A stretch of DNA of 19,256 nt, from contig JBHLSH010000075.1 of NCBI GenBank assembly GCA_048881705.1, positions 1 through 19,256 on the forward strand. Reading direction: 5' to 3'. Shown here piece after piece: positions 10,439 to 14,900 of the stretch. The notes below the pieces were generated by a model, which was not told the DNA's origin, ran no database searches, and saw nothing but the letters and a program-made list of their open reading frames with translations. Every line of letters begins with the position of its first letter. Within the stretch, counting starts at the first letter, position 1. The DNA comes from Candidatus Heimdallarchaeota archaeon. Lineage in GTDB: Archaea; Asgardarchaeota; Heimdallarchaeia; Hodarchaeales; Hodarchaeaceae. The translations under genes and the position numbers were made by a program.

Positions 10439-11548
10439 ATGATCGAAAGAACACCAATTCTAAGACTGGAGAACCTGACCAAGAAATTTGGAGAGGTTAT
10501 TGCTGTCGATGATGTAAGTTTGGATATTCATGATGGCGAAATTATTACTTTACTTGGTCCATCGGGTTGCGGTAAATCCACAACATTGCGCTCAATCGCA
10601 GGGTTGGAAAGAATTGATGGGGGAAACATTTACTTCAAAGGTGGCCGAATTACCGATCTAGCTGTACGAAAAAGGGATATGGCCATGGTTTTTCAATCTT
10701 ACGCGCTATGGCCACATATGACGGTACGAAAAAACGTTGAATTTGGAATGACAATCGGTGATCGCCGGGTTTCTAAGGAGGAAAGAGGAAATCGCGTTCT
10801 CGAATCATTACGACTAGTTGATGCTCAGGAACTAATTGATCGAAAGCCTTCAGAACTCTCTGGAGGTCAACAACAACGGATTGCAGTGGCTCGAGCCATC
10901 GTGGTCAACCCAGCTATCTTACTCCTTGATGAACCGTTTTCAAACCTTGATGCCAAGCTACGGATTGAAACTAGATCTGAAATTCGCCAACTCATAAAAA
11001 AAATTGGACTTACTGCCATTTTTGTCACTCATGACCAAAGCGAGGCACTTTCTATTTCTGATCGGATTGCGATAATGAATAAGGGGCGAATCGAGCAGGT
11101 TGGTTCCCCTTTGGAAATTTGGGGTTCTCCCAGAAATGCTTTTGTGGGAACATTCATCGGAGAAGCCAATCTGGTCGAATGCACCGTTAAGGAGACCGAG
11201 GAATCAAGTGCCCTCCTATGTCTGATGGGGAGTAATGGTAATGAATGCTTTAGATCGAACCAAATCAAAGCCATAAAACCCAAATCGAAAGCACAAGCTA
11301 TTCTCCGTCCCCAAATGCTCGAGATAAATCGAAAAAGGGCCCCTTCACCGAATTCAATAACGGGCCGAGTTATTGAATCGATGTTTATGGGAACTCTCGA
11401 GTATGTCAAGGTTGAACTGGCGAACAAAGCTGTGATTATCATCCACAGGAAGCTCGTACGGGGTAACCCACTTGAACCAAACGAGTCGGTCTTCATAGAA
11501 ATCGATCCAGACCAAACTTTTGTGTACGGTGGAGAATATCAAACCTAG
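10439..11548 (+). CDS. ABC transporter ATP-binding protein (PotA/FbpC/MalK-like, C-terminal TOBE region); no adjacent permease
   Basis: GPSGCGKS, VFQSYALWPHMTV, LSGGQQQR, LLLDEPFSNLD, VTHDQSEA. Confidence 0.9.
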   Translation: MIERTPILRLENLTKKFGEVIAVDDVSLDIHDGEIITLLGPSGCGKSTTLRSIAGLERIDGGNIYFKGGRITDLAVRKRDMAMVFQSYALWPHMTVRKNVEFGMTIGDRRVSKEERGNRVLESLRLVDAQELIDRKPSELSGGQQQRIAVARAIVVNPAILLLDEPFSNLDAKLRIETRSEIRQLIKKIGLTAIFVTHDQSEALSISDRIAIMNKGRIEQVGSPLEIWGSPRNAFVGTFIGEANLVECTVKETEESSALLCLMGSNGNECFRSNQIKAIKPKSKAQAILRPQMLEINRKRAPSPNSITGRVIESMFMGTLEYVKVELANKAVIIIHRKLVRGNPLEPNESVFIEIDPDQTFVYGGEYQT

Positions 11549-11585
11549 AAAATCAACCTTGTATTCATATGGAAGAACCTTCATG

Positions 11586-11662
11586 GGTTCCCAAATGATG
11601 AGAACGACGGTCTTCCGAGGCTAAATCAGCCTATGAAGAAAGTTGCACTTACTGAATGAGCC
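11586..11662 (+). ncRNA. Box C/D methylation-guide sRNA (archaeal snoRNA-like)
   Basis: C box ATGATGA 11595-11601, 13-nt guide, D' CCGA 11615-11618, stem-loop GGCT-AAATC-AGCC, C' ATGAAGA 11633-11639, 12-nt guide, D CTGA 11652-11655. Flanks GGTTC/GAGCC can pair. The D' guide is antisense to conserved LSU rRNA AGACCGUCGU. The ends are estimates. Confidence 0.88.
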
Positions 11663-11670
11663 GTTCTTTC

Positions 11671-12588
11671 ATGTCATTATCGATACTCAAGATCTTTAGA
11701 CAATTGAAACCTATTGATTTTCGGGTTCTTTCTGTTGTAGAGATTTTAATGGCAAAATACGAGGCAGTCCCTACAGAGGAACTCGGAGGATATCTGAATT
11801 ACACCGAAAAACGGATACTTTCCCAGTTAAACAGACTACGAAGGTTAAAACTACTAACATTGTCTCAACAACATTATTTGGGAACGATGTTAACCTTTAA
11901 GGGCTATGATGCCCTAGCCCTTAAAGCACTGGTTGAACGGGGAGTACTCGCCCAGATAGGACCAGAAATAGGTGCAGGAAAGGAAAGTAATATCCATTTA
12001 GCGGTGAATGACGATGGTCACGAATTTCTCGTCAAGTTTCACCGCCTCGGAAAACTAAATTTCCGTTTTACCAAAAAAGCTCGGCATTTTATTGCAGATA
12101 AAGGTCACCTTTCCCCACTCTACCAAAGTCGATTATCGGCACAACGGGAGTTCACTGCACTGTCACGGCTGCACGAGGCGGGAGTGAAGGTTCCACGACC
12201 AGTGGGGTATAATCGTCATGTTGTCGCAATGGAAAAGGTAATTGGAATTGATTTATATCGAATCAAGAAACGGGAACTGGAACCTGAGGCCGTTCGGACA
12301 CTAATAGCCAATATCGTTGAAGAGGTGACCAAAGCAGTTAAACTGGGGTTCATCCATGGAGATCTTAGTGAATATAACATCCGTTTAAATGAAGAGGGTT
12401 ATCCTGTTTTGTTTGATTGGCCGCAATACGTGGAACCAACGTTTGACCAGGCTGAGACAATTCTTGAACGAGATATACAAGGAATATTCAGATATTTCAC
12501 GCGCAAATACCAGATTGAACTCTCGCTTCAATGGCAGGAAGTTTTGGCAGATCTAAAGACGATTTTAATTCGATATGACGAACCATAA
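11671..12588 (+). CDS. rio2: RIO2-type serine/threonine kinase (small-subunit maturation)
   Basis: N-terminal winged-helix region, IGAGKES, KFHRLGK, catalytic IHGDLSEYNI, FDWPQ. ATG 11671 is preferred because ATG 11656 abuts the sRNA D box. Confidence 0.92.
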   Translation: MSLSILKIFRQLKPIDFRVLSVVEILMAKYEAVPTEELGGYLNYTEKRILSQLNRLRRLKLLTLSQQHYLGTMLTFKGYDALALKALVERGVLAQIGPEIGAGKESNIHLAVNDDGHEFLVKFHRLGKLNFRFTKKARHFIADKGHLSPLYQSRLSAQREFTALSRLHEAGVKVPRPVGYNRHVVAMEKVIGIDLYRIKKRELEPEAVRTLIANIVEEVTKAVKLGFIHGDLSEYNIRLNEEGYPVLFDWPQYVEPTFDQAETILERDIQGIFRYFTRKYQIELSLQWQEVLADLKTILIRYDEP

Positions 12589-12680: not shown

Positions 12681-14900
12681 TTGGTCGAGTCTTCACCTAT
12701 TATCTTCGGTTTAGACATTTCAACGCATGGGAAGCGTGAAAATAGAGAGAAAAAATCTTCGGTTTTTTCATTAGCCGTATTACAAAATTTACATCTTGAA
12801 ACATATCCTAAATTAAGCAGACGCGCTTTGTTTTCAAAGATTATGGCCCTAAAACCTGATTTCCTGGCAATGGACAATATTTTCGAACTATCTCCCAATG
12901 CGCAAGGTATTATTCGGTTCCTGGGAAAAATCCCACCAACTACCACATTGGTTCAGGTGACTGGTAATCCGCGCACTGGTATGGAAAAACTTGTCACATT
13001 GGTCAGAAAAAATCATCTTAAGAAAACGTTAAGTTTTCAATTCAACTCCCGAAAATTAAATGCAGTAGAATCGGCGGAAGTTTGTGCCAGATTATGTCAA
13101 CGTCGTGTTGGTCACGAAATTGTAGCTTTTGAAGAGGAGATCCGAATCGCCGTTTCACGAAAGAAAAGTTCAAGGCGAGGGGGACAGAGTGCGCCCCGTT
13201 ATGAACGAAATTCACGAATTGCAGTTGCTCAGGCCGCTGGGGAAGTGGAGAGAATTTTACGTGAGAGAAAAACGTCCTGGGATCTCTTTGAGTACCCACA
13301 AAGACGTGTATACATTGTACAGGTAGAAAAACGTGATCTGGCCCAAATTCAGACGGTTCTAAAATCTTTAACAACCGAGTTGGTTAAGGTCAAATTAGAG
13401 CGTATAACGAAATCTACGTTGGATTTCAAACCATTGGACGTTGCAGTCGCACCTGGTACACGGCCGCTAAGAAACGTAATTCTTGGGATTGATCCTGGCA
13501 CTACCACAGGAATTGCGGTCATAGATCTAATGAAAGGGAGAGTATTATTTCTAGGTTCGAAGCGTGAGTGTGGGATATCAGAAATCATTCGAGAGGCCTC
13601 AAAACATGGTAAAATATCCTGTGTTGCGGCGGACGTAACCCCAGCACCGGCTACAGTAGAGAAAGTCGCAAGAATGACAGGTGCGCGATTAATCACGCCG
13701 CTTAATCTTGCATCAGCCTCTCAAAAGCGCGAATATTTGCAAGATTATCGTGATTTAACTGTTAATTATGGTAGGCTGAATAATCACGAACGAGATGCCC
13801 TTTACGCCGCTTTACGCGCCTTTAATTCCTTGAAGGAACAATTAAGCAAAATCCAAAAAAGTATAGACGAATCAGCCCCACATTTAATGCCAGAACTACC
13901 AGAATTGCAACGTTTAGTATTGGCAGGAAATTCGATTGCGAGTGCGATCGATGTTGTACAAGGAAAAATAAACACACGCGGGCCCCCTCTTGTGGAAACC
14001 AATCAAGAGGGCCTTATTATCTCCTTACGTCATGAAATTAATCAACTACAAAGCAAAATTGATGCGGTTTATGAAGAACTGCATAAACTTGACCAAGAAG
14101 TCACTTTTTGGCGGCAGGAGGCTCGTAAACTAACTACGGAGCTGAAACAGATTCGAGGTCAAAAGGAACGGCGGCGACTTAAACAATCAAAGGATATGCA
14201 AAAACGGATTTCTGAAGCTGTCAAAAGAGAGGTGGGACGAATTCAGGAGGAAAACCTCAATATTCGTCGGCAACTCCGCCAAAACGAGGTGGAAATGGGG
14301 AAACTACGCCAAATCAAAAATTTTTGGATGGAAGGACGCGAAATCCCTTTAAAGGTTCTAAAGACATTCTCAGATGACGCCATACGCGAAACTATTAAAA
14401 ATTTTGGAGTTAACGAAGGAGATATTGTTTTAGTTTTGGATCCAAGTGGTGGGGGGGCACAAACTGCTCAAAAAGTTATCGACCTCGGAATTAGGGGGGT
14501 TCTTGTTCCCGAAGAATCCCCCAAGTTTAGTGATCAGGCCTTAAGAGCCTTTGAGGACAACTGTGTACCTTTTCTTCAACTTCCATTGAGAGAGTTCTCA
14601 AATAGAAACCTTATATATGATCCACAGGATCCTGTTTTGGAATTGCTGGTGTACGATGGCGTATATCTTACTGATATCGCTATCAAAGAGGAAATTCGCA
14701 AACGGGAATTAATACTCCGTGAAAGATTACGCTTAAAACGCCTTGCAATGGCTACAAGTAAATCATCCTTGCTCAATGAGACCACAGAGGATAAAGATTT
14801 TGATATGGATCGTCTGTTAACCGAATTCAAGGACGATTATGAACGCCAGCATGGAGAATCCAATGATATATCTTTGAAGGATAGCGGAGAAGAAGAATAG
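12681..14900 (+). CDS. DUF460 (COG2433)-like archaeal protein with RNase H/RuvC-YqgF-like fold and long coiled coil
   Basis: FGLDI...FSLAV, LAMDNIFEL, SRGGQSAPRYER, LGIDPGTTTGIAVID, HERDALYAA, heptad-rich region, LDPSGGG. TTG start. Confidence 0.85.
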   Translation: MVESSPIIFGLDISTHGKRENREKKSSVFSLAVLQNLHLETYPKLSRRALFSKIMALKPDFLAMDNIFELSPNAQGIIRFLGKIPPTTTLVQVTGNPRTGMEKLVTLVRKNHLKKTLSFQFNSRKLNAVESAEVCARLCQRRVGHEIVAFEEEIRIAVSRKKSSRRGGQSAPRYERNSRIAVAQAAGEVERILRERKTSWDLFEYPQRRVYIVQVEKRDLAQIQTVLKSLTTELVKVKLERITKSTLDFKPLDVAVAPGTRPLRNVILGIDPGTTTGIAVIDLMKGRVLFLGSKRECGISEIIREASKHGKISCVAADVTPAPATVEKVARMTGARLITPLNLASASQKREYLQDYRDLTVNYGRLNNHERDALYAALRAFNSLKEQLSKIQKSIDESAPHLMPELPELQRLVLAGNSIASAIDVVQGKINTRGPPLVETNQEGLIISLRHEINQLQSKIDAVYEELHKLDQEVTFWRQEARKLTTELKQIRGQKERRRLKQSKDMQKRISEAVKREVGRIQEENLNIRRQLRQNEVEMGKLRQIKNFWMEGREIPLKVLKTFSDDAIRETIKNFGVNEGDIVLVLDPSGGGAQTAQKVIDLGIRGVLVPEESPKFSDQALRAFEDNCVPFLQLPLREFSNRNLIYDPQDPVLELLVYDGVYLTDIAIKEEIRKRELILRERLRLKRLAMATSKSSLLNETTEDKDFDMDRLLTEFKDDYERQHGESNDISLKDSGEEE

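Follow-up and report, generated by a model that had tools for sequence, protein, structure and literature searches.

Box C/D sRNAs of the Pyrococcus/Pyrobaculum type are encoded by the dozen in each genome. Archaeal sRNAs typically have a K-loop at C'/D', and methylation hotspots known in archaea include helix 35 and helices 90-93. Dennis et al. 2015 (PMC4644070) predict nucleotide C2864 of their pan-archaeal alignment to be targeted by the D' guide of Pyrobaculum calidifontis sR30 and by Ignicoccus hospitalis sR27/sR124. By counting, C2864 is the first C of the motif AGACCG, 16 columns before the column that Dennis et al. equate with E. coli C2606. On the eukaryotic side, snR73 guides methylation of yeast 25S Cm2959, its orthologues being U35 in human and plants (U35A,B/SNORD35; AtU35) and CD31 in N. 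crassa, for which the D' guide is the one listed. The same site is methylated in human (Cm4506/4536), Arabidopsis (Cm2949/2960), tomato, tobacco and Dictyostelium. A keyword search of the literature for Asgard C/D RNAs or archaeal RiboMeth-seq found no Asgard box C/D guide catalogue.

Here we analyse a window of 19,256 nt (the whole of the stretch studied; contig JBHLSH010000075.1, assembly GCA_048881705.1) in which a sequence-only reading had proposed an unannotated guide RNA of this kind in a probable Asgard archaeon. The host is indeed an Asgard (Thor-type) archaeon. Upstream of rio2, the window contains what is very probably the gene of a box C/D sRNA with two guides, about 65-78 nt long, predicted from its boxes, guides and conservation to act as a methylation guide.

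Architecture of the candidate sRNA

The four boxes C, D', C' and D lie within 11595-11655 in canonical order and spacing, and every coordinate that had been given for them was found correct when the sequence was read again (Table 1). Across the locus, the string is GGUUCCCAA-AUGAUGA-GAACGACGGUCUU-CCGA-GGCUAAAUCAGCC-UA-UGAAGA-AAGUUGCACUUA-CUGA-AUGAGCC. The guide spacers, of 13 and 12 nt, are near the usual length of about 12 nt, the D' spacer having 13 nt and not 12; counted upstream from D', G11610 is in fifth place. Both internal boxes are degenerate: D' (CCGA) and C' (UGAAGA) are off consensus at U positions and keep their GA dinucleotides.

Table 1. Positions of the sRNA elements and neighbouring genes in the window
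Feature	Position	Strand	Remarks
ABC-transporter ATPase gene	10439-11548		PF00005; the element sits between its stop and rio2
Possible terminal stem, 5' half GGUUC	11586-11590	+	Pairs with GAGCC in the MFE fold
Box C, AUGAUGA	11595-11601	+	Read in sequence; UGAUGA invariant in 16 of 16 aligned homologs
D' guide spacer, 13 nt	11602-11614	+	Positions 2-11 (11604-11613) antisense to 23S AGACCGUCGU; N+5 is G11610
D' guide 10-mer ACGACGGTCT	11604-11613	+	Inside the 13-nt spacer
Box D', CCGA (degenerate CUGA)	11615-11618	+	CCGA, CGGA, CUGA or CAGA in relatives; GA invariant
Internal hairpin closing C'/D', stem GGCU/AGCC, loop AAAUC	11619-11631	+	Helix covaries in relatives
Stem arms of the C'/D' hairpin, 4 bp	11619-11622/11628-11631	+	Read in sequence
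3-nt bulge UAU	11632-11634	+	Shares its final U with the start of C'
Box C', UGAAGA	11634-11639	+	All homologs UGA(C/A/U)GA
D guide AAGUUGCACUUA, 12 nt	11640-11651	+	Positions 2-11 antisense to own 23S AAGUGCAACU, helix-35 loop
Box D, CUGA	11652-11655	+	Invariant in 16 homologs
Possible terminal stem, 3' half GAGCC	11659-11663	+	MFE fold
rio2 (RIO kinase, Rio2 N-terminal winged helix)	11671-12588	+	PF01163 and PF09202; directly downstream of the element
739-aa DUF460 protein gene	12681-14900	+	PF04312; downstream of rio2, same strand

Between D' and C', this genome and the nearest relative have an insert of 15 nt, the other congeners one of about 35-38 nt. In the homolog alignment, the C'/D' helix (columns 35-39/66-70) has 92.5% of its cells paired, with compensatory changes at four of its five pairs (GC/AU, UA/CG, UA/CG/UG). 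None of 500 shuffles attained the observed values, and controls in which the helix was slid along the alignment were 15-53% paired. A covarying stem followed by a 3-nt bulge and tandem GA pairs argues that C'/D' is a true K-turn. As judged from the alignment, this motif is thus closed by a helix, unlike the K-loop usual in archaea, and the kink-turn geometry proposed earlier for C'/D' (4-bp stem, UAU bulge, tandem GA) is borne out. The motif AUCAG recurs in the internal hairpin of most homologs, including, within 11619-11631, the shortened form AAAUCAG.

The ends of the RNA are less regular. The possible terminal stem GGUUC/GAGCC (5 bp) is offset from the C/D boxes in the own genome (G000), and the nearest relative, G001, retains this pairing through a C-to-U change. 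The RNAalifold consensus fold of 16 homologs has no terminal stem adjoining C/D. A conserved terminal stem between CCC upstream of C and GGG before the rio2 ATG was also considered and rejected: by eye it amounts to about 3 bp, and RNAalifold does without it.

The genome encodes the proteins of the sRNP, fibrillarin (C27:3520-4182) and Nop5 (C27:2652-3326) from adjacent genes on one contig, and L7Ae from another (C58:3031-3297). By analogy with the mechanism established for the family, L7Ae would bind the C/D and the C'/D' kink-turns, and two Nop5-fibrillarin dimers would then assemble. Each guide would base-pair over about 10 nt with the nascent 23S rRNA. Counting five guide bases upstream from D' or D gives the base whose rRNA partner fibrillarin would methylate at its 2'-OH.

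Predicted targets in 23S rRNA

The D' guide matches 23S AGACCGUCGU perfectly (10/10), its N+5 base pairing with the first C. Assembly of the own 23S stops at model position ~2078, before this target, so the match is confirmed only in two genomes of the same genus, G005 and G008, where a 23-nt target motif, GGGTTTAGACCGTCGTGAGACAG, is exact; there the perfect 10-nt complementarity first claimed against a general LSU motif holds for real 23S genes. For the cognate 23S, pairing is expected from these congeners and from the universal conservation of the site. The 23S gene of G005 (contig C44) overlaps the own 23S up to its break at 84% identity and then runs into domain V. The bin of the nearest relative contains a complete archaeal 23S gene (G001:C57:307-3242), which was set aside as foreign and probable bin contamination, since it has ACACCG at the target site and only 64-71% identity with the 23S of this lineage.

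In a MAFFT alignment to rrlH, the first C of the archaeal AGACCG aligns with E. coli A2590, the position at which the sequence-only reading had placed the target of G11610. Since yeast U2921 is E. coli U2552, yeast C2959 corresponds to E. coli 2590 by the 38-nt offset, assuming no indel. This offset and the literature together support the further equation, already made in that reading, of 2590 with the 25S C2959 of snR73 and human U35/SNORD35. The first of the two predicted methylation targets is this C, the first of AGACCGUCGU, which lies in the peptidyl-transferase centre. Against the 18 tRNAs found by aragorn, the D' guide has no contiguous match of 7 nt or more.

Positions 2-11 of the D guide form a perfect 10-nt match to the own 23S AAGUGCAACU at G000:C9:71241, in the loop of helix 35. 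Guide pairing was assessed on an rRNA set of about 5.8 kb, made up of the own 16S, the own 5' two-thirds of the 23S and the 3' third of a congener's, and elsewhere in this set, domain V included, the D guide has no match of more than 6 contiguous Watson-Crick pairs. Helix 90 is not supported as a D-guide target, the sole 10-nt match lying in the helix-35 loop. The yeast equivalent of the D-guide target would be the U directly 5' of Gm805. This U is absent from the yeast Nm sites in the plant-conserved table, which includes Gm805 and Am807. The nucleotide at N+5 is a U aligned with E. coli U747, both by MAFFT and in the alignment of Dennis et al., and the U747-equivalent column is targeted in none of the seven species studied there. 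This U of AAGUGCAACU is the second predicted target. The locus thereby yields two concrete candidate sites of methylation at functional centres of the subunit, one in the peptidyl-transferase centre and one at the exit tunnel, in the loop of helix 35; both regions (H35 and H90-93) belong to the archaeal hotspots named above.

The 23S genes of the genus themselves bear insertions or introns in domain V. In G008 (contig C8), about 320 nt are inserted between E. coli 2577 and 2578, 9 nt 5' of the D' target, and the 23S of G005:C44 has an insertion of about 45 nt near E. coli ~2450. The 23S contigs of the own genome (end of G000:C9) and of G001 both break off at model position 2078. Isolated 3' pieces of 23S (model 2721-2973) occur twice in G001 and twice in G008, contigs C38, C45 and C52 of G001 being involved in 23S pieces or breaks.

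Both guides thus form 10 contiguous Watson-Crick pairs at positions 2-11, in canonical register and with N+5 covered. Random genomic 12-mers reach at least 10 contiguous Watson-Crick pairs over N+5 in 1.8% of trials, and the joint chance of rRNA matches by both guides is about 3e-4. We further scanned both strands of the 3.96 Mb, 91%-complete genome with a four-box regular expression (RUGAUGA, 11-13 nt, C[UCG]GA, 3-50 nt, UGANGA, 11-13 nt, CUGA); the sole match was this locus, the outcome was unchanged when D' was relaxed to NNGA, and the reversed genome gave no match. Apart from this RNA, the genome therefore seems to have no canonical four-box sRNA, and the lineage may have very few guide RNAs. 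A relaxed scan for half-sRNAs returned 41 matches and, with 19 in the reversed control, amounts to little more than noise. Neither the strict nor the relaxed four-box scan found a second canonical double-guide C/D sRNA in the genome.

At gathering thresholds, Rfam finds only a tRNA in the whole window, and its C/D models score the element at a mere 10-18 bits, below their thresholds. This result, as well as the shortness of the boxes and the degeneracy of two of the four, would fit an accidental grouping of short motifs between two genes. Such an origin has a negligible probability given the single match in the genome against none in the reversed control and the pairing of both guides with rRNA, and it is effectively refuted by the comparative data, the element being kept in all genomes of the genus with compensatory changes in its internal helix.

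Conservation and genomic context

Homologs were sought by BLAST and with a covariance model built from their alignment. The covariance model finds the element in 22 of 22 genomes of the genus, as a single copy (one genome, G006, has it on two contigs, hence 23 loci), and gives no match in the remaining 61 genomes of the class. Among the 16 aligned homologs, the UGAUGA core of C, box D and the GA of D' and C' are invariant, and so are the D' guide core GACGGTCT and the D guide core AGTTGCACTT. This invariance compares with a Rio2 identity of 56-63% outside the closest species. The search for conserved boxes and guide upstream of rio2 that the sequence-only reading had proposed thus has a positive outcome within the genus.

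The D' duplex is not equally long in all members. Five genomes, the own one included, have ACGACGGTCT and hence 10 bp, while about 17 of the 22 have A or U, mostly A, and not C at D' guide position 10, leaving 8-9 contiguous pairs that may be marginal for methylation. For these variant guides, the peptidyl-transferase site is still the best rRNA match. Such a mismatch in most of the genus would suit an sRNP acting as an rRNA-folding chaperone by base-pairing, with one or both sites (especially the D' site with its 8-9 pairs) left unmethylated, and guides that pair but probably do not methylate are discussed by Dennis et al. 2015 (PMC4644070). The version analysed here, however, forms all 10 base pairs at either site, N+5 being in a Watson-Crick pair, and methylation does occur at the eukaryotic counterpart of the D' site, in yeast, human, plants and Dictyostelium. 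We accordingly regard a chaperone role of this kind as very improbable and keep to the methylation guide as the preferred reading.

Related RNAs were then sought outside the genus by scanning 400 genomes of the phylum for the pattern UGANGA-N2-5-GACGGUCU-N-CNGA. It matches in 21 of 21 genomes of the own genus, in all five of family f13 (UGAUGACUACGACGGUCUUCCGA), in all four of family f27 (UGAUGAUUCGACGGUCUCCUGA; genomes of 1.3-1.4 Mb) and once in a single other genome, as against one match in the 400 genomes for the pattern read backwards. The f13 and f27 RNAs (L097-L104) agree with the element in layout, C box, D' guide and D' box and carry a short GC...GC linker, and in one other Asgard family the D' spacer is 12 nt long. 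Their D guides are not conserved, and they lie upstream of purA (adenylosuccinate synthetase), not rio2. Between sRNA and purA, the f13 and f27 loci share a conserved element, TCATTCAAATGCC....

In the own genome, the longest rio2 ORF starts at 11656, straight after box D, and the resulting 5-codon extension is the only ORF overlap with the element. As tblastn alignments to relatives begin at residue 1 of the 11671 frame, the ATG at 11671 is probably the true start rather than 11656. In 22 of the 23 loci, rio2 follows on the same strand 15-36 nt past box D (15 nt here), the remaining locus lying at a contig edge. The RNA is probably transcribed together with rio2 or directly abutting it. In many congeners (L010-L021), TTATGATT/TTATAATT adjoins box D on its 3' side, roughly 27 nt ahead of the rio2 ATG, and may serve as TATA box for a leaderless rio2 transcript; a GATAAT/GATAAA element lies about 30-40 nt upstream of box C in these loci. 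This genome and G001 are without the 12-nt spacer, which makes co-transcription of rio2 with the sRNA more likely here.

The unvarying strand and the short distance to rio2 would also be expected if the element were mainly a cis-regulatory leader, an L7Ae-binding kink-turn for rio2 translation or stability whose rRNA complementarity is secondary or vestigial. Binding of L7Ae to archaeal mRNA leaders is reported (PMC5539422), and the naked RNA folds very stably (z -4.4), its guides pairing with each other. This long hairpin is absent in relatives, however, and is therefore regarded as incidental. A leader function would moreover leave unexplained two invariant 10-nt guide cores in exact N+5 register, as well as the recurrence of this D' guide before another gene, purA, in the two further Asgard families. 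It is thus quite improbable that the element is mainly a leader, although a guide role and a rio2-leader role are not mutually exclusive. As an sRNA guide, the element is of mild interest for its helix-closed C'/D', for being apparently the sole canonical C/D sRNA of its genome and for its genus-wide linkage to rio2, a ribosome-biogenesis kinase gene.

Relation to described guide RNAs

With the eukaryotic snR73/U35 family, including CD23, its counterpart in Dictyostelium, the element shares the target nucleotide. No homology in sequence or structure to this family was detected beyond the guide, and none of the snR73/SNORD35 Rfam models matches 11540-11710 at E values up to 10 (cmscan). Eukaryotic snR73/U35 RNAs are longer, single-target, and either intron-processed or independent Pol II units, whereas the element has a second guide, directed at helix 35. 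The best sub-threshold Rfam match is RF01166 sn3071 (18.1 bits, E 0.17, gathering score 40), a eukaryotic C/D snoRNA of nematodes. In its consensus, AUGAUGAGA...ACGACGGUCUUCCGA reproduces the C box, the D' guide and even the CCGA form of D' of the element; the remainder is unaligned, and the likeness is confined to the boxes and to a guide dictated by the target.

C box, D' guide, CCGA/CUGA D' box and short helix are shared by the sRNAs of this genus and of the two further Asgard families, and this Asgard sRNA might be a direct archaeal orthologue of snR73/U35. If so, the Cm2959 guide-target pair, its D' position and the eukaryote-like helix-closed C'/D' K-turn would have been inherited vertically from the archaeal ancestor of eukaryotes and not reinvented. 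We consider this unlikely. Because the guide is dictated by an invariant target, guide identity cannot separate homology from convergence; homology with snR73 is unproven, and the consistent D' placement and the CCGA/CGGA variants of D' are suggestive only as regards descent. A site common to yeast, human, plants and Dictyostelium is nevertheless predicted to be guided in several Asgard lineages and in Crenarchaeota, which fits an old guide-target pair without proving it.

Among archaeal RNAs, Ignicoccus sR27 and Pyrobaculum sR30 come closest, being likewise double-guide box C/D sRNAs with a D' guide predicted to the same nucleotide (E. coli 2590). Ignicoccus sR27 contains GAACGACGGTCTC-CTGA, and its D' spacer, GAACGACGGTCTC, is the same as that of three congeners of the organism studied here and one base off that of this genome (position 1). 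Their second guides differ from that of the element, targeting G2322 and C2880 respectively. The D'-C' linker of sR27 is 5 nt long and of K-loop form, in contrast to the covarying 4-5 bp helix here, with inserts of up to about 38 nt. Both RNAs moreover belong to hyperthermophilic Crenarchaeota and lie in another genomic context. Since the same nucleotide is already a predicted target in Ignicoccus and Pyrobaculum, the link to the eukaryotic site is not special to Asgard archaea. Of the original proposal that an Asgard archaeon guides modification at the site of a conserved eukaryotic snoRNA, the identity of the site therefore stands, while a notable Asgard-eukaryote link is not supported in that form.

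In a wider comparison, the element shares with the Pyrococcus/Pyrobaculum-type C/D sRNAs (Rfam sR1, sR3, sR11 and sR12) the four-box layout, guides of about 12 nt, the N+5 rule and the L7Ae/Nop5/fibrillarin machinery, and differs from them in having a helix rather than a K-loop at C'/D'. It is a genuine, previously unannotated and fairly ordinary member of this known class.
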